A stretch of DNA of 64,000 bases from Camelus ferus (Eukaryota). The stretch is from assembly GCF_009834535.1 (NCBI RefSeq), contig NC_045696.1:17920001-17984000 (forward strand), read 5' to 3'. The position numbers and the translations under genes are program-made. This document shows, piece after piece, positions 23,035-42,411 of the stretch. Each line of letters starts with the position of its first letter. Position 1 is the first letter of the stretch. The notes beneath the pieces were generated by a model. That model was not told the DNA's origin. It ran no database searches and saw nothing but the letters and a program-made list of their open reading frames with translations.

Positions 23035-23567
23035 TGGAGGAGAGGGAGGATGGTCCAGAAGACGGTGCCATGTCTGCCTCCAGCATGAAGGGACTTTACT
23101 TCTTCTAAATGAGTGCCAGCAAAAACAAACAAACAAAAAACTGGTTAAAACCCTATAGCCACGACTGCGTGGTAGCAGAAAGGACTTAACCAGACATAAC
23201 AAATATTCATTGTATTATAATTAAAATTGAAGTTTAGGCTTCCCCCGGACTCTATGGGTTTTTCTGTGTACACACTGGGTAAGGACATGCGCAAAGGGCC
23301 CAGACATGACTAAGCATTCCAGGGAAGAGAGCCATCAATCAATCAATCAAAAGACCACCTCTCAGCGAGGGTGTAAGAGAAAGGGGAGGTAAAAAACGCT
23401 GCCTCTCCTGCCTTGGATCAGCCCGCCTCCCATTCTCAGGGGTGTACTTTTCCTTTCTTTTAAAATAATTCTTTCAAATTATTTTGCTGCACAGTGCACC
23501 ATCTCCCGACTACAAACTTGTCTTCTGGGTATGACAAGAACAAGAGTCTTTACCTTTTAGGGTAACA
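23035..23567 (+). mobile_element. Probable older ERV1-type solo LTR (5' boundary uncertain)
   Basis: LTR-like 3' half (CATGCGCA, GGGTGTACTTTTC, GACAAGAAC) ending GGTAACA; no clean TSD found. Confidence 0.5.
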
Positions 23568-24329
23568 GGTGGATTAAAATAATGGATATTAAAATTTCAC
23601 TTAAATATCTAAAGTAAATTTTGGGTTATTTTCATTAGAAAGATGATACAAGGGGTTCAATAGTTTCTGCTGGATATTTTTAATACCTTCTAATAAACTG
23701 ACCCCTTTCTATTCTCCATCTGTGGTCTTCTGATCACCTGTAGCTTCATCAATAATCATATTATCTTTTTTTAGCTTTTCAGACAGAAATGTTTCTGCTG
23801 ATCAGTATAAATTCACTCCTCTCAATAAGATACAAGTAACTTTAGAAACAAGGAAGAAATAAAAATGTGAAACATTCAAATGGATGCCTTCTATAAAGGT
23901 AAGAGGCTATCCTGTCCATCTTCAGCAAATCTTGAATAATTACTTTGCTGACCCCTTTAGGCTGGCTGAAGGTCTTCCTGGCCTGAGACCTTTTCTTAAA
24001 TTTCCAGCTTCAGGATTGTGGGTTCAGATTAGTAGTTTGGATTAGATATTTCTAAGATTAACATGATTTCATTTTTAAAGATACTAGAGTTTTTCTCTCT
24101 TGCATTCTTCTTTTCACAACTAGATGTTACTTTTAGCTCTGTGATTAAAAATCACAGATGGCAGGGAGGTCTTTTCTTGTGAGTTGATACTCATTTCTCA
24201 TTAAATCACAATTCTAGTTAATGCCTCTTTTCTATAGCTCTAATCATATGCCTTTCTTCTCTTTAAGATGAAGGAAAAAAGGTGTTACTATGTAGCTACT
24301 ATACTGCTGCTCCTTTATTCTGTGACCCT

Positions 24330-24808
24330 TGTGAATGAAAAATACTGCAAACCACATCAGTAAACAAAGAATGCAGGAACCCATCAAGTCATCAGCGGCT
24401 GCCGCCACCCCCCAGTGAAGGCAAGCCTGCAGCCCGGAATCTGCAGCCACTCACAATGGTGCACCCTGAGGGCACTCAGAATAAGAAAGGACAGGATACT
24501 GGCCCTAGACAGCTAGGTGCTTGTCAAAGGAATGAATTCAGTGAGCCCAAATGTTTGCTTCCTCCCATACACGGAAAAGCACTAAATTCTTTAACTTGAG
24601 ATGCCTGGTTTTCTTTAGATAAAAGGTAATCTTTTAATGTTCCAACTACCTGGTCTCTGTTGTAAAAACACCTATATATCCTGGCTCCTCCCCTACCTCT
24701 TGGGAGCAATCCCTCAGAGCCATCTGCAAAGCTGTCATCCGGCTGGAGTCCTCCCGCCAATAAAATATAACTCTCAACTTTTAGGCTGTGCACTTGTTTT
24801 AGTCGATA
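24330..24808 (+). mobile_element. ERV1-type solo LTR (479 bp)
   Basis: Starts TGTGAATGAAAAATACTGC and ends AGTCGATA (CA>TA). TSD CCCT at 24326-24329 / 24809-24812; TATATA near 24673; AATAAA near 24759. Confidence 0.85.
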
Positions 24809-24920
24809 CCCTCTACTGCTAAAAACTTTCTTTATAGGATATGGTGGTTAAGATACTAGCTGTAACTTCAGTTTGTGCCTGATACTCCTCTTTTCTTGAC
24901 TCTGACGTTTACAGTACTTC

Positions 24921-25373
24921 TGTGAAGGAAAAACCAGGCTGGACTAACAAGATAACTCACAGGTATAGGAACGTGAAGGAGAGGCTGGGCTGCGCTAACA
25001 AGTCTAAGTATTGGAATACTGATCTGAGTTCTGCTGGACTAACTTGTAAATCTAGGTTAATTAGCGTTGGTTTGCTGTTCATGTTTTTTTGCTAGCCAGC
25101 TGGATTTTCAAAGATACATATCTGGCTTTGGAATGTTGGCTTGCTGCCTCCCCGCCTCCACCTTTGTGATGATAATGCTGCTAAAGCTGTTCCATGCCTA
25201 TTGGCCGAATACCCCAAGCTTGTACTTTACCCTATAAAACCTCATGTGCACATCTTGAAGGTGCTCAGAGCTTCGGAGCAGAAGCCCCTCTGAGCCCGCC
25301 GGCGTAATACATCTGAGTACTCCAACCCTCCGAGTGGTGCTTGTTTCTTGGCTGGCCTGTCGTTTCTGTAACA
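24921..25373 (+). repeat. 5' LTR (453 bp)
   Basis: Starts TGTGAAGG and ends GTAACA. Reverse CCAAT (ATTGG) at 25200-25204, TATAAAA at 25233-25239, AATACA at 25306-25311. By-eye alignment to the 3' LTR gives 11 substitutions and 1 indel. Confidence 0.97.
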
Positions 25374-25377
25374 TTTC

Positions 25378-25395
25378 TGGAGGCCCCAGTGAGAT
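25378..25395 (+). promoter_or_regulatory. Primer-binding site complementary to the tRNA-Thr 3' end
   Basis: TGGAGGCCCCAGTGAGAT lies 4 nt after the 5' LTR. It matches the reverse complement of mammalian tRNA-Thr ...ATCTCGCTGGGGCCTCCA at 17/18 positions; the mismatch is a CpG transition. Confidence 0.85.
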
Positions 25396-26513
25396 ACAAC
25401 CACGCCGGCCCCTTGAGCCGCTGGACTGGTGGCTCCAGCCGACCGGGGGACAGGATTCTGGCAGCAAATGAGGTGGCGCCGCCCGATGATATTTCGGGTT
25501 CTCTTTCGTGACAGGCAACTCGGCCCCCGGGTGGCTGGGCTACAACCAGATCCAGACTCCATGGAGGGACGGACAGACTCACCAGGTGGCCGTCCGGACA
25601 AGGTAGGAACCCCTGGGAGGTATCAGGTCCTGTCCCATTGGACAGAAGAGGAGGCGGATCCCCTCCTACAGGAAACAGGATATTGGTATTGGTGGGAAGA
25701 ATGTTGTTAACCTCTGTGTGTGTGTGTGAGTGAATGAGCGGCCTGTGAAGCATGCGATCAGGCTCGAGTTTGTAGCTCCACAGCATTCTGCTACGGAGTT
25801 CGAGTGAGTCCCAACCTGCAGTTCCGTGGTGACCTCATACGGCTCAGGGCGGTATCGGTCCCTCAGGGTCCCGATCGGAGTCAGCGGCTTATACAGACCC
25901 GCCAAAGCTAAGAGGCACCTTCATCCCCACGAGGGGAGCGGCCAGGCGGACACAACGAAAACCCTCCCTTGTCTTGTCTGCGACACTGGCACAGGGTGGC
26001 TACACTGGGAGGGAAAAGGACATAGATAGCCAATGAGTCAACGCCCCTGTGCCCTCGGAGGCTAGGATGCTATTTCTTTGAAAAGTATCCTACCTGATTC
26101 TGTCACAGAACACCCGAGACTTAGTTTCCCCTACAGAACAGACCCACGTAGTGCCCCTTTTGCCTACCCCCAGGCCCCCAGGACTCGAGTTTAGAAGACG
26201 AATTCCTTCAGGACCGGGCTTACCTGGCCTTGGAGGTCCCTTTTCTAGTCCATTTGTTTTACCATCTGCCATCAGTCCCACGCCCCTGATACATTAGTTC
26301 AGGATATAGAGAGGATTTAATGAAGAAAGTCCCTGGAACTGCTTGGGGCCTTGAGCTCCAGAGACATCAGCTGTGACTGGAACCCAGACTCCTTGACCAA
26401 ATTAGCCTTCAGACAACTCATAGACCCAGCAAGAGAGCAGTCTCTCTGGGAACTCCGGTGTTTTGAGGAGTGAAGAAAAGATATAAAGGCTACCTTCCCA
26501 AACATCTAAAAAA

Positions 26514-28272
26514 ATGGGAGGCTCTAAGTCAAAACCCGCCACTCTAGACTGCATGATTAAGAATTTCAAAAAGGGGTTCCCAGGAGACTGTGGAATTTGA
26601 ATGACCCCTGGCAGGCTCCGCACTTTGTGTGAGCTTAAATGGCTGGCCTTTGGAGTCGTGTGGCCCTCAGGAGGAACTCTGGACCTAGCAACAGTGTGAG
26701 CAGTCTATCAAATAATCAGTGGAACCCCAGGCCACCCAGATCAATTCCCTTACATTGACTCCTGGCTGAATATCGCCCATACTCTACCCCCATGGATTCG
26801 GTTCTGCCCAAATGGACCTGGACAATGTAAAATATTAGCAGCCCAGCCAGTCCAGGCCAAAAAGACAGACAGAAAAAAACCTATTTTCCAGGGAGACGCA
26901 GAAGACAGATATGCCTACCCCCTCCGTATGCCCCCGGGGCAACAACAGCCTCCCGTCTGAGGACCCAGAGGCAGAGCCCAGCCCCCAGCCTGAGCCGGTA
27001 GGAAGGAGAATCCGCTCAGCACAAGCCGGGAAGCCAGCACCACTGGCCCTCCAAATGCCGCTGCAGGAGACACAAGGGCCACAACAAGTTGGGGAAAACA
27101 GGACTGTTCAGCCTGGGAACCCCGTAATCTGCTACCAACCCTTTAGCACCACAGCCCTTCTCAGTTGGCGCCATCATACTCCTTCCTACTCTGAAAAGCC
27201 GCCCAGCAATAGCAGCAGCAGCAGCCCCTGCAGCCCTGGCACCGCCTCCACCTCGGCCGCCGCCTCCATGGCAACTGTCGGGGAACGCCAGCCCCTGCCC
27301 AGTCCCAAAGCGATGCTGGGACAGCCTTGGGCTCTTTTGCAAAGTCATACAAATATTTGGTCTCTGTCCAGCCCACGAGGATTTCTACTTGGTGGTATAT
27401 GACGACTGTAATCAGGCTGCCAAGCCGCAGGCTATGATTGACCTCGTAGAGTCTATCTTCCATTCTCACCAGCCCACCTGGGAAGATGTCTGCTTCTGAC
27501 TCTTTTCAATACGGAGGAGAGGAGAAGCATTCTCACTGAAGCATGAAAATGGCTGCAGGGCCAAGCCCCTGGGGACACAATGGATGTTGAGGGATGGGCC
27601 ATGACACATGCCCCTGACACCAGACCAGACTGGGACTTTAACACCCAAAAAGGAAGAGAAGCGCTGCATGAGTACCAGGAGGCCATCCTACAAGGGCTAA
27701 GAGCGGGAGCCAAGAAGCCAACTAACATGTCTAAAATGACCATGGTGACCCAGAGGCCAGATGGAACCCCCACTGACTTCTATGAGAGACTATGTGAAGC
27801 ATTCCGAGTCTACACTCCTTTTGATCCTGAGGCCCAAGAAAACCAGCAGATGGTCAACGCTGCCTTCGTAGCCCAATCATACCCAGATATATGCCAGAAA
27901 CTCCAAAAACTGGATGGATTCACAGGGATGAACGCTACACAGCTGCTGGAAGTAGCAAACAAAGTTTTTGTAAACCAAGAACGGGAAGCCCAATGAGAAG
28001 CAGACCAGCAAATGAAGCAGAAAGCCACTCCTTGCAGCAGCCCTGGGGAAAACAAGCTTCAGCCAGAATCCTGCACCACCCCGGAAGAGGGGACCCCAAC
28101 CATGGATGCCCCTGGGCCGAGACCAGTGCGCATACTGCCGAGAGACAGGACACTGGAAGAACGAGTGCCCAAACAGAAAGGATGGAAAGAGAGCACCCCC
28201 AAAAGGCCTACTTATCAGCTGGAGCCACCAGCCAGTAATCACATCAGACTGACTGGGGTCGACTTAGAATAG
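26514..28272 (+). pseudogene. gag: ERV gag (MA-p12-CA-NC), disrupted
   Basis: MGGSKSKPATLDCMIKNFKKGF...GHPDQFPYIDSW (HERV-E-like MA); PPPY late motif near 26918; CA YQPFS...TPSYSEKP/QAMIDLVESIFHSHQPTWED; MHR-like TQRPDGTPTDFYERLCEA; NC knuckle CAYCRETGHWKNEC from 28127. TGA stops at 26598, 26697, 27544 and 27994, plus frameshifts. The terminal TAG (28270-28272) is in frame with pro. Confidence 0.95.
27202..27427 (+). pseudogene. ATXN7: Captured fragment of cellular ataxin-7 mRNA inside gag
   Basis: CAG-rich tract (27204-27224), then PGTASTSAAASMATVGERQPLPSPKAMLGQPW, then in a shifted frame GLFCKVIQIFGLCPAHEDFYLVVYDDCNQAAKPQA. These match recalled ATXN7 GPGAASTSAAAMATVGERRPLPSPEVMLGQSW and [35 protein letters not shown]. 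Flanked by AAGCCG direct repeats. Confidence 0.9.
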
Positions 28273-28760
28273 GAGAGACTGCGCTCCCTGCTCCTGGGCC
28301 CCCGGGAGCCCAAGGTCAAGATGTTTATAGGGGGCCAACCAATGACTTTTATGGTAGACACAGGAGCAGAGTATTCTGTGGTGACCCAACCTGTAGCCTC
28401 CCTGACCCAGAAAAAGGTGACTATTATAGGGGCTACTGGGGAATCAACTGCCCGCCATTTCTGCCAACCACGATCCTGTCAAGTAGGGGGCCATCTAGTG
28501 ACACATGCCGTTATTCACTGTAAGGGACCATATTCAGTGGTATTAACTACCCCTACAGCTGTTAAAGTTGCAGGAATCATCCCTTGGATCCACCTCTCCA
28601 GGGTTAAGAGAGCGACTTCACCTCAGACAGAGGGTCCCTGGAAAATTGAGAGTGTCCAGGGAGACCCGCTCAAGATCAAGATCAAGAGGGACCAGAAAGG
28701 AATCGACAAGCCCTGCTCTAGCCACACCTGGAAGCTGGCTAGTCAACGCACGGCCGAAGC
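28273..28760 (+). pseudogene. pol: ERV pro-pol remnant: protease N-terminal part fused to an RNase H scrap and the integrase C-terminus; RT deleted
   Basis: Aspartic protease motif FMVDTGAEYSVV; AVIHCKG at 28507-28527 (RNase H motif); KGPYSVVLTTPTAVKVAGIIPWIHLSRVKRA (gamma-type IN C-terminal GPY/F region). No YxDD motif present. Confidence 0.93.
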
Positions 28761-28951
28761 TCGAGGAAAGCTCAACGCAGCTGTTAAATGTATTAATTTT
28801 GTGCTCCCTTGCCTCTTTCCTTGTTTGCTATACTAGTCTGCGTATTAGCAGTGGGGCTAGCTAGCGCCGCCCCACCTGACTGGAACATAGGCCATAGAAT
28901 CCTGATAGCTACTTTATATCTTGTTATAATTAGTGCCATCACTGCAGCATC

Positions 28952-29537
28952 ATGTCTAAGATAATCATAAGGCTGATGTTACTGACGCTAATGCCCTCAC
29001 TCTCCTTGGCTGTACAATGCACCTGCATGGAACCGGGTGACAAATGGTCCATGTACCAACCTGTATTTTCAGCTTACAGGTGAATTCAGCCACGATCTCC
29101 AACAAATAACAGAAACCCTGGGAACTCTGCAAAATCAGATTGACTCTCTGGCCGAGGTGGTCTTACAAAACAGGAGGGATCTGTACCTTACTCACGGCCA
29201 AAGAGGGGGGACTATGCCTCTCCCTAAAACGAAGAGTGCTGTTTTTATGCCAATCAATCAGAAATTGTCAGAGAGATGGTTCAAGAGTTACAAGACCGAG
29301 TAAAAAGAGAAAACATATTTTAAATAAGAGCCCATGGACCCCCTGGCTGGCACTGTTCATAGGCCCCTTACTCCTGATTTTTGCAGTTCTGCTGTTTGGG
29401 CCCTGTGTCCTAAACTTCCTGACCCACTTTGTCAGTGAGTGGATAGAGGCTATAAAACTTCAGATGTTAGCCTCTAATTATGAGCCCTCGCAACAGATAA
29501 GTGATGATGTTACTCCAACTAGAGTTGTGAAAGCATC
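28952..29537 (+). pseudogene. env: ERV env remnant: signal peptide plus TM, SU largely deleted
   Basis: MSKIIIRLMLLTLMPSLSLAVQCTC (signal-like); heptad and ISD LQNQIDSLAEVVLQNRRDLYL/LTAKEGGLCLSL..ECCFYANQS (CX6CC, frameshifted); membrane span WLALFIGPLLLIFAVLLFGPCVLNFL. Confidence 0.92.
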
Positions 29538-29549
29538 AAGAGGGGGGAA
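29538..29549 (+). promoter_or_regulatory. Polypurine tract
   Basis: AAGAGGGGGGAA immediately 5' of the 3' LTR. Confidence 0.93.
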
Positions 29550-30001
29550 TGTGAAGGAAAAACCAGGCTGGACTAACAAGATAACTCACAGGTCTAGGAA
29601 TGTGAAGGAGAGGCTGGGCTGTGCTAACAAGTCTAAGTATTGGAATACTGATCTGAGTTCTGCCGGACTAACTTGTAAATTTGGTTAATTAGCGTTGGTT
29701 TGCTGTTCATGTTTTTTTGCTAGCCAGCTGGATTTTCAAAGATACATATCTGGCTTTGGAATGTTGGTTTGCTGCCTCCCCGCCTCCACTTTTGTGATGA
29801 TGATGCTGCTAAAGCTGTTCCATGCCTATTGGCCGAACACCCCAAGCTTGTACTTTACCCTATAAAACCTCATGTGCACGTCTTGAAGGTGCTCAGAGCT
29901 TCGGAGCAGAAGCCCCTCTGAGCCCGCCGGCGTAATACATCTGAGTACTCCAACCCTCCGAGTGGTGCTTGTTTCTTGGCTGGCCTGTCGTTTCCGTAAC
30001 A
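29550..30001 (+). repeat. 3' LTR (452 bp)
   Basis: Near-identical copy of 24921-25373, preceded by the PPT and followed by the CTTC TSD. Confidence 0.97.
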
Positions 30002-31146
30002 CTTCCTTTCACTAAATGCTGTATTTACAATTCCTACTGGCTTAAGTGTTTTTTTTTTTTTTTTAACCATGCGTTTTTGGAAATAATTTATAAAACTAAG
30101 ATTTTTTTTTTTTGTTAAAGAGTTTAAATGAATTTTGAGCAAATATTTAAAAAATACAGTTTTAGGGTAATATTAAAAGACCCCATACAAGGAGCACGTT
30201 TATACCCACTCCCTGCTTCAAAATGGGCCATCAATACAGACTCCTCTCCTCCCCTAGTCTCTTCTCACACTATTCCATGGCTCTTTTCTGTTTTTTGTCA
30301 TGAATACCAGTATCATGTGCATATTCTTTATGCCCATTGTTAATTAGTAACATACTTGGCTTTATGTTGATGCTTAATAAAACATAATTGGTGAGGAGTT
30401 GAATTTTTCATGTAATATATATCTAAATATTTTGTCAAGTAAGTAAATATAAATGTATTGAATCTCTATTAATATTCAAAATGCTTTTCCAGAAGTAGTA
30501 ATTTACAGTATCAATTTTGAACTACAGACTTTCAGATTTTAGGTCCTGAATTACTCTAGTGCTTTCAAGTGGGTTGTGGGTGTTCAACAATTGTTTTAAA
30601 TGTTTCTCTTTTTCTGAAGGCCTTGTTTTAAATGCTGTAAACTTCAAAAGGATAGAAGACCTATTATCTGTAATGATTCAATTTTTTAAAAAATCATTCA
30701 TACTTTGAGTAAACTGAAATGTGCTCCCTGTGGTATTTTCCCTACACTAAGAACTAGTCATTACTGAGAAGTTTAATGTATAATAATTGCTCTTCTATCA
30801 CCTGTTTTACGAAACAAAAATTTATTATCCTTATTTTAGTTTCCCAGGTAAAGAACATTTAAATGTGAGGATATCTGCACAGAACTGAAATGCAGATAAC
30901 GAGACTGAATTCAAACAATTAAGACAACTATGAGGCCAAAGGACAACTTTTAAACTGCTTTTGGAGTTTATAAACTGAGTTCATATATTTCTTTAGGTAT
31001 AGAAATCAGATGAAGCATGAAAATCTTACTTCTCGTTATACATTACTTGTAATTATAATTTTTTCTCTTCTAAACATTTTTGCCCCAAAGGGTTATGAAA
31101 TAGTTCAGTGTTCTCGAAAGACACTGAATACTATGGATCATACCAT

Positions 31147-31779
31147 TGAGACAGGATGGAAGGGGGCAGGGCACAGCCATTCAAGGAATGATACTGCAAT
31201 TAACATCAAAACGGTGAAAGATTCAACCCCCAGTAAACCTTGAGGCTCAGGATGATGAGAGATTTAACTTCTAGTAGATCTTGAGCTTCATTATACGCTC
31301 ATTGTAATATATTAACATGGTGAATAACATCCCCACAGGCACCATGGCAGTCCCAAGGCTGGCCACAAAAGGTCAAAGAGTGGGAAATGGCCAACTTCCT
31401 GGGAATCCCAGCCCCTTCTGCAGGCTACTTAGACTGGTCCTTCCACTTATTAGCACATGAAGCCACCAAGCCCATAAAATCCAGCAACACGGTGTCTCGT
31501 GGCTGCCCCTCTCTCTCCCTCTTTGGAGATGGTCCCACGCTCTGTCTTTGGAATGTGTACCTACTTTTAATCTGAGCTCCCAACTCCAACACCTTGTGTC
31601 CTTTCTCTTGCCTTTCAATGTATCTCTCTGAAGAAATTTACCTTCACTCAACTGTGGCTCGCTCTTGAATTCTTTCCTGCATTAAGCCAAGGACTCACAC
31701 TTGGCAGGGCATGTCTCAGGGGCTCAACTGATACCTGGGTCACGGCCCTCCTCATGCCCATATCTGTTTTCCTGCATCA
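31147..31779 (+). mobile_element. ERV1-type solo LTR (633 bp)
   Basis: TGAGACAGG...CTGCATCA with a 4-bp TSD CCAT (31143-31146 / 31780-31783); U5-like GCTCGCTCTTGAATTCTTTCCTGC...GCCAAGGAC. Confidence 0.87.
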
Positions 31780-33649
31780 CCATAAACCCAGAGTAAGCAG
31801 GGAATACTTGGTTTGTAAACATAATCCTGAGGCAAAAGGAAAGTCACAGTACAAATCATAGATTCTAATATATCTTTATATATTAAAACATACTCACACA
31901 TAAACATTCAAACACACACCAGGAAGAACATTGTTTGAAACTGAATCACGAAAAAAATAAAGTAAAACTTGAATTTCCAGACTAGTCTACTTTGTACTTA
32001 ATTCACCAATAAATGATAATTTGGTATACATTTTTCATCTCTTACTATAGATTGTGTTAGTCTGAGATTTGTTTATTCTAAAGAAAATATTGCATTTGAT
32101 AGGTATTTAAAATAATACAATTACTGTCTTACTAACTGGAAGCCAACGATAAACTACATTTTCCTCAATTAGTTATTTGCTTAAATAATCAAGCTTACAG
32201 TTTTTAAGTAATTTAAAGGTGTATCTATGATTGATTAAATGAAACAGCATAGTTGTGACTCAAGTAGATACCACGTTATCAGAGTTATAAATGAAGATTA
32301 TATATTTTACAATTTGTGATAATGATAAATATTTAATATATTCTTTGCTCAGGTTATTGTGAAGTGTTGAACTAAATTTGATGCACTATATCTGTTTTGC
32401 ACACTCTTATAATTAGCATATTTCCTTCCTATTCCCTTTGTTGGAACGGTTTTCTAATCTCTATGTTTTGTGTGTTTATGTCACTTTAAATTTACTTTTG
32501 AAAATGAAATATGTATCTAATAAATTATATAAATTAAATACAGTACTGATGACTGATGAAATATGCTTTGGCTTTCAATTTCTGTTGAAAATTCCTGAAG
32601 GGATAGTGAAAACTTCTTTCCAACTATTTCTACACATACACATTCTAATTATATAGACAACAGATCCTAATTATTATATAAAGTTAACTGGTTATTTATT
32701 GGCTGTCATGGACCACTGCTTCTAACGTTTTACCTTAAGAAATAATTATCCAGATGATTAACTGAAAATGCATGTTTGTGGGGCCAAATCTCCACATGCT
32801 CTAAGTTTTAAGTTAGTTGTCACCAAAATACGAATATGTAACACATTATCTTTTTTTTTGAAGGGATCTCAGGTTCTAAGTTTTGAAAATTTTAAAATGA
32901 AAATATATAAAGATGTCTATGCTACTGAATAGCTATTTGTACATATATATATGTCTGGAGTTCAGGATCTATTTAATACAATCCAGTAGATCTCAGTGAA
33001 TAGGGTGTCCATATAATTTATTTTCCTATTCTACTCACTTTTGAAATTGAATGCAGACATTATTACTGGTTAATATAGGATGGCAGAATTAAACGTGGGT
33101 AATTCAGGAGAATTAAGCTAGTGAATGTTTTCCCTATTATAAACGTGGTCATTCATGCAGGAAGCTGGTCTTAAACATCCATTTGACTGGTGCCACACTG
33201 CAGAAGTTCCTGTCTCAGTTTAAGGAAAACTTTGCATCTCTGGCTTCACTTTATATCCACTTTAGTGGGAAATTCTGTTAGCAACACCTTCAGATAGACT
33301 CAAAATATGATCCTTATCTACTTCTGAGCTACAGTAATTTTTTTTTTCCTACATTACTGAATAGTCTGCTTGCTTCTGCTTCTCCACAGATAGTTCTCAT
33401 TAGAGAAGCAAAGGTGATTCTTTGAAAAAGTAGAATTGATCATGTCAGTTAGTCCACTTTGATACATCAAACACATTCCTTCTCTAAGCACTGCCTCCAA
33501 CGATCACTACATCTCCTTAATTCATCATCCTTTATTACTTTTTCTGCAGTCATTATTTTTATTCTTTTCCCACTGCCTTAGTTGTCTAAATGAGAACCAC
33601 AATTACTAGGTTCACTTGTGCATTATTTTTCTATATATATATTATTAAT

Positions 33650-42259: not shown

Positions 42260-42411
42260 ATTTTCTTTCTTTTTTCTTTTTTTTTTTTTTTTTTTTGGTG
42301 ATTGGGGGTAGGTAGTTAGGTTTATTTGTTTTTTAAGTGGAGGCACTGGGGATTGAGCCCAGGACCTCGTGCATGCTAAGCATGCACTCTACCACTGAGC
42401 TATACCCTCCC
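42260..42411 (-). mobile_element. tRNA-Ala-derived SINE (camelid vic-1-like) with poly-A tail
   Basis: Reverse complement reads GGGAGGGTATAGCTCAGTGGTAGAGTGCATGCTTAGCATGCACGAGGTCCTGGGCTCAATCCCCAGTGCCTCCA (A and B boxes), with a T-rich tail on the + strand. Confidence 0.9.

Follow-up and report, generated by a model that had tools for sequence, protein, structure and literature searches.

A gamma-like provirus of Camelus ferus with spliced ATXN7 RNA sequence in its capsid gene, very probably one member of an old multi-copy subfamily

Captured host RNA in retroviral elements

Many acutely transforming retroviruses are defective and need a helper. Their genomes carry transduced oncogenes such as v-src and v-sis (PMC13297096, in the portion available). 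In the accessible text of the animal survey by Tan et al. (2016, PMC5131818), retrocopies mediated by long terminal repeats (LTRs) amount to 3 human, 8 mouse, and 15 Drosophila cases; the same text cites the capture of FAM8A1 by HERV-K (Jamain et al. 2001) and gives a model of a double template switch at short matches followed by non-autonomous cycles. In the mouse, pseudogenes of the circular RNA (circRNA) circRFWD2 were tied to MMERVK10C-int, with 33 high-confidence copies, by Dong et al. (2016, PMC4897178), who call the mechanism of circRNA retroposition unknown. Here, we describe a defective gamma-like provirus of an endogenous retrovirus (ERV) at positions 24921-30001 of a 64,000-nucleotide stretch of the Camelus ferus genome (NC_045696.1, positions 17,920,001 to 17,984,000; hereafter, the window), whose capsid gene contains a piece of the host gene ATXN7. 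An initial annotation had proposed that the capture of this piece predates the integration of the provirus, implying a multi-copy subfamily of similar elements.

The camel provirus resembles the LTR retrocopies, as far as they are described in the accessible text (PMC5131818), in the presence of a partial spliced host RNA within an LTR element, in the short matches at both switches, and in its apparent non-autonomous cycles. It differs from the 15 Drosophila cases of the same text, whose internal sequence was replaced, in that the insert cost it no gag and one word serves both switches; as replacement of the internal reading frame is a feature of the Drosophila set, we regard this as a difference and not as an exclusion. 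No camelid case is noted in the available part of the survey. The likeness to the circRFWD2 copies (PMC4897178) lies in the dozens of genomic blocks of host exons with ERV internal sequence, of varied lengths and mutation loads. However, the mouse carrier is of the ERV-K type and its back-splice was shown, whereas the camel carrier is gamma-like, its exons are colinear, and a back-splice is hinted at in one sibling contig. As in the transforming retroviruses, host coding sequence is found within a viral genome; in contrast to them, the camel copy lacks a fusion frame that runs unbroken from the start of gag and shows no sign of selection on the ATXN7 protein, with a decay like that of a passenger. 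A literature search, with most subscription journals outside it, found no description of an ATXN7-bearing ERV, so the element, itself real, appears to be an undescribed example of a kind that is recognized although rare.

The ATXN7 insert and its divergence

The insert was identified by matches of two of its reading frames to ATXN7 in the PDB entry 7ktr_N (E 4e-9 and 4e-8). It consists of 226 nucleotides (nt) of spliced ATXN7 from exons 3-5, including the CAG tract, and lies within capsid between 7-nt direct repeats, on the forward strand as are all the features of the provirus. The left repeat (27196-27202) belongs to a joint from 27195 to 27422 with 7 letters compatible with either side. It is followed by the part derived from exon 3 (27203-27328), in which the CAG tract precedes a coding stretch STSAAA-MATVGER-MLGQ and the proline-rich stretch is gone. 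The tract itself (27204-27224) has 7 triplets with two interruptions, the type of spinocerebellar ataxia type 7 (SCA7) being retained. About 32 codons are deleted internally, whereby exon 3 is fused to the end of exon 4 (27329-27344), which is joined to exon 5 up to KPQA (27345-27432), the final 11 nt being compatible with gag too. The end of exon 4 after GLCRE is given by primers in the supplement of PMC13313202, with which the genomic read-through proteins P0002 and P0060 agree, and the end of human exon 5 by the accessible part of PMC4304365. The border between exons 4 and 5 is crossed at 27344/27345 without an intron; thus, the template was spliced ATXN7 RNA. No poly(A) was found at the insert, and tblastn detected no other part of ATXN7 elsewhere in the window.

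At the right repeat (27422-27428), gag resumes with zero residues lost. In tblastn, the alignment of gag relatives stops at 27198 and resumes at 27422, with a single lysine (K115 of P0009) on both sides. This continuity, together with the contigs that skip the insert (see below), indicates that 226 nt were gained and no gag was lost. At the 3' junction, gag shares 11 of 12 letters with human exon 5, and a similar microhomology of gag and ATXN7 would exist on the 5' side, as judged from protein sequence only; hallmarks of LINE-1 (L1) retroposition are missing. The insert splits capsid and shifts the frame, so this provirus cannot supply its own Gag. A function of a fusion protein was rejected for the provirus copy, in which gag is already interrupted upstream of the insert.

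The 35 codons corresponding to 27329-27433 encode identical residues in dog (P0006), P0005, and P0048, with one residue different in human. Against mammalian ATXN7, the insert shows 11 residue changes in these codons, among them the non-conservative ones named in the initial annotation (GLCREDMP to GLFCKVIQ, CND to YDD, VV to AA). These require at least 11 base changes, which with 2 more in 19 upstream codons make 13 in 162 nt, a floor that leaves silent changes uncounted. The two LTRs are 2.4% apart, alignment reproducing the 11 substitutions (5 at CpG sites) and 1 indel counted earlier; 9 of the 11 are transitions, and one further mismatch sits one base beyond the LTR edge and hence outside the count. 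Halved to 1.2% for each copy, this distance predicts about 2 changes over 162 nt, and the excess in the insert has a P of about 1e-7 (2e-4 with a doubled rate). With the mutation rate of 1.1e-8 per 5-year generation, or 2.2e-9 per year, given in the available part of PMC7305198, a Kimura two-parameter (K2P) distance of 0.025 corresponds to 5.6 million years (Myr), and to 3.1 Myr without CpG sites. Integration of the provirus is thus estimated at about 3-6 Myr ago, near the split of the Old World camels, for which the same part of that source gives 4.4-7.3 Myr. The insert is therefore far more diverged from ATXN7 than the age of the LTRs predicts, and the 13 changes against about 2 expected, together with the sibling contigs described below, confirm on these sequence comparisons that the capture is much older than the integration, as had been proposed.

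Sibling copies and alternative origins

A search of public assemblies with 27100-27560 listed 24 runs, 20 of which, from 11 studies, contain part of the query. The best runs contain only 0.65-0.72 of its words, as expected for a collapsed repeat family, and the shares in runs X17, X18, and X20 are 0.15-0.30. Four of the 24 (X1, X4, X15, and X19) were aligned on 26950-29100 at 80% likeness; the contig results given here refer to the matches listed, namely 40 of 635 difference rows, 24 of 251 loose ends, and 32 of 1927 pieces. At 27285, the alternative letter was found in 29, 19, and 8 contigs of X1, X4, and X15, and at 27307 in 25, 14, and 4, respectively. Overlapping contig ends inflate these counts, which are still far above the two forms expected of one diploid locus and so indicate several loci. 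Over the listed insert sites, depth adds up to 228-711 in X1 and to 81-251 in X4, whereas the shallowest single contigs have 8-15. This is a hint of some ten copies or more, although a sum of depth is not a copy number.

In all four aligned runs, a contig spans the exon 4/5 junction and 57-84 nt into gag, with 16-17% divergence and the same 3' junction. Such divergence next to a gag junction rules out an allele, and likewise the host gene, as the source of the bridging contigs. At face value, 16% would correspond to roughly 40 Myr, an upper bound because of CpG decay and errors of reverse transcriptase (RT). Relatives free of the insert, which skip 27196-27421 with 7 letters fitting either side, were present in three of the four runs (4, 3, and 1 contigs), and the listed loose ends include others whose sequence goes on into pol at 28507 and env at 29064. 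The sole insert contig of X19 presents a one-letter length difference at 27328 only, and therefore shares the large internal deletion. Several copies thus carry the same defect, insert and 3' junction included, as in a non-autonomous subfamily. The junction is not confined to one locus, and the contigs confirm, within what assembled reads can tell, the multi-copy ATXN7-bearing subfamily that the initial annotation had expected.

The listed rows cover 6 of the 13 coding sites, and the alternative letter restores the ATXN7 residue at all six. The window letter makes up 75, 35, 18, and 75% of the summed depth at 27341, 27345, 27349, and 27351 in X1, and 78, 60, 26, and 74% at the same sites in X4; it is near-private at 27285, 27307, and 27336 (4-6% in X1). 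These three near-private sites fit the 2.75 expected from the LTR age. In addition, the siblings vary in a GCC (alanine) run near 27255, and the window letter is missing from all contigs at several sites, a gap that contig collapse can produce; we make no claim that this very locus occurs in the sampled organisms. The nested sharing of derived changes indicates that divergence accrued stepwise within the viral lineage and, with the internal deletion common to a 16%-diverged sibling, shows that the captured form multiplied.

The provirus therefore very probably belongs to an old ERV subfamily that has many copies, depends on a helper, and bears a stretch captured from ATXN7 RNA. In a particle with co-packaged ATXN7 RNA, RT engaged in minus-strand synthesis would have switched away from gag where EKPQA of gag and VKPQA of ATXN7 share a match of 11-12 nt, copied ATXN7, and re-entered gag at the same word, leaving the 7-nt repeat. 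Because the insert disrupts the capsid gene, the spread would have occurred in trans, with proteins supplied by intact relatives, and pol and env may have been lost along the way, before the present copy integrated at the estimated date. Several points weigh against this account. The contig matches listed are a small part of all, and none of the 32 pieces listed out of 1927 spans the junction of the pol deletion or that of the env deletion. The siblings are known from short-read contigs without flanks or target-site duplications (TSDs), and some copies could stem from segmental duplication. The divergence from the host rests on protein conservation and not on camel ATXN7 DNA. Finally, no chimeric Gag-ATXN7 protein was among the 92 proteins returned, in which gag and ATXN7 were found separately.

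A donor transcript from a decayed processed pseudogene of ATXN7 would account for both the splicing and the high divergence, which would then be inherited and not owed to viral cycles, and 7 of the 13 coding sites do lie outside the listed rows. However, the siblings that carry the ATXN7 residue at all six visible sites are joined to gag, so these changes arose after capture; as a main cause, such a pseudogene is largely refuted, and we give it hardly any credence. Only slightly more probable, and still quite unlikely, is a single capture and integration multiplied at the DNA level, by segmental duplication or by gene conversion among ERV loci. The flanks of the siblings are not visible in the contigs, and conversion between LTRs could make the provirus look young, but the provirus lies between AT-rich flanks with a TSD of its own, the number of its near-private changes agrees with the age of its LTRs, and the nested shared changes and repeated deletions of microhomology type fit rounds of reverse transcription.

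Within the favoured account of a helper-dependent subfamily, which it would refine and not replace, the captured RNA may have been a circle, probably circATXN7(2,3,4,5). RT would have entered it at KPQA, made one full turn through the back-splice, and left at KPQA, and a later deletion would have stripped the part with the back-splice in the subfamily of the provirus. We hold this as a tentative lead. An X19 contig passes from gag at 27197 into ATXN7 KPQAFQSHY up to the exact end of exon 5 (24 of 26 letters as published) and then reads GTCT, which corresponds neither to exon 6 (ERRH in P0048) nor to the start of intron 5 deduced from P0070 (G-K-Y) nor, by the primers, to the start of exon 3 or exon 4. 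The only X19 contig over the insert body has 98 unaligned letters upstream; if both contigs derive from one locus, the order would be exon 5, an unread part, and exons 3, 4, and 5, that is, one turn of a circle. Moreover, circATXN7(2,3,4,5).1 is catalogued in human, and both junctions use one gag word with no gag lost, unlike all 15 Drosophila LTR retrocopies in the accessible text of Tan et al. The insert contains only exons resident in that circle and lacks poly(A), a low-confidence criterion of Dong et al. (2016). A non-colinear join is absent from the window copy, the X19 contig being suggestive over 30 letters. Nevertheless, these visible letters come from one contig of one run, perhaps of RNA; the start of ATXN7 exon 2 is absent from the sequences compared, and P0070 is a protein without stated species. 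As GTCT follows AG once in the 3' LTR of the provirus itself, a splice into the LTR fits too, and a linear template could also return to the same site, RNase H leaving viral RNA that ends at the first switch. The literature search found no paper on a 2-5 circle of ATXN7, and a text search of the supplements of Dong et al. (PMC4897178), which tables in picture format would escape, gave no match to ATXN7.

The provirus and its surroundings

The element has a GC content of about 50%, in contrast to 30-38% in its AT-rich flanks, and an interior marked by stops, frameshifts, and deletions besides the insert. The 4-bp TSD copies CTTC (24917-24920 and 30002-30005) adjoin a 5' LTR of 453 bp with TG...CA ends (24921-25373) and a 3' LTR of 452 bp (29550-30001). 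The primer-binding site (PBS; 25378-25395) is of the tRNA-Thr type, with 17 of 18 letters identical to the oligonucleotide "cDOQ Thr 3" in the available part of PMC12820529, and a polypurine tract (PPT) is found at 29538-29549. The long 5' leader (25396-26513) is the presumed packaging region from its position between the PBS and the gag start. The cis elements of the initial annotation were thus all recovered, the packaging role of the leader as a presumption. Within the U3 region of the 3' LTR, there is an acceptor-like AG (29590-29595), and one base just downstream is altered in the 5' LTR; this site is a rival candidate for the origin of the letters that follow exon 5 in X19.

The gag region (26514-28272), recognized by tblastn with gag relatives and by the Pfam domains Gag_MA, Gag_p30, and zf-CCHC, comprises matrix, capsid, and nucleocapsid parts and is disrupted by stops, frameshifts, and the ATXN7 insert. 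Only the N-terminal part of the protease follows (28273-28507; Pfam RVP and gag-asp_proteas), relatives diverging from the window at 28507, and it continues in a single frame, across a deletion, into a short RNase H-like remnant and the C-terminal tail of integrase (28508-28780; MLVIN_C, E 2e-10). The approximately 5 residues between the two are presumably RNase H-like, as judged by motif. No RT or integrase core was detected in the provirus by a Pfam scan of 10 frames. In the env remnant (28965-29549), a short leader-like stretch, recognized by eye, is joined at about 29063 to a transmembrane (TM) part, with loose ends of relatives at 29064; Pfam matches cover positions 424-473 and 466-559 of TLV_coat (PF00429), on the TM side only. 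The large interior deletions that had been noted are therefore real. Paired TG...CA LTRs, a 4-bp TSD, PBS, and PPT, along with Gag_MA p15, Gag_p30, a single zinc knuckle, an integrase tail of the murine leukemia virus (MLV) type, and a TLV_coat env, are those of a Class I ERV, several of the domain matches scoring under the curated cut-off, being fragments. The provirus is gamma-like, as assigned from the structure and domains of a copy without RT.

Between the integrase tail and env, a hydrophobic frame of 55 residues (28797-28964) has two apparent membrane stretches; it had no Pfam match, and an Atlas search with 28797-28961 was also without match. Around the provirus, three further stretches, at approximately 23087-23567, 24320-24810, and 31304-31780, resemble solo LTRs of other families by eye, none of them matched by the provirus in blastn of the element against the window. 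Farther away, on the reverse strand (42337-42409), ARAGORN called a tRNA-Ala flanked by a long poly(T). Rather than a gene, this is most likely a short interspersed element (SINE) of tRNA origin; we take this combination to fit a camelid SINE.

Among the aligned runs, X19 showed a depth of several thousand over 28566-28760, in the integrase tail and the region proximal to env (6903 in one 206-nt contig), against 40-320 over gag, possibly because a related ERV is abundantly transcribed. About half of the query words occur in the RNA runs X15 and X16; we do not claim transcription from this, since contigs cannot demonstrate it and some DNA may be among the material. Searches of other collections gave no matches for the junction pattern in viral and metagenome contigs, for gag in viral contigs, or for the insert in plasmids, and none confirmed out of 603 pattern matches to ATXN7 in metagenomes; camel DNA is apparently not represented in these collections, which makes the results uninformative.

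Mammals have few germ-line fossils in which a retrovirus captured host RNA and the product then multiplied, and the nested copies of different ages in this family let capture, deletion, and spread be ordered and dated. It is possible, if rather less than an even prospect, that in the germ line of camelids a gamma-like retrovirus copied one full turn of the circle circATXN7(2,3,4,5) with its CAG tract, with entry and exit at a single 11-12 nt match in gag. The product would then have multiplied over millions of years as a family that depended on helpers and shed parts of the circle. If so, both switch points would be readable and would offer a concrete mechanism for circRNA retroposition, the junctions answering the question left by Dong et al. 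(PMC4897178). Read mapping at ATXN7 in camels, and the calling of circRNAs there, can be misled by these copies. In addition, the CAG tract of a polyglutamine disease gene has been scattered to many neutral sites, which makes repeat stability testable without selection.

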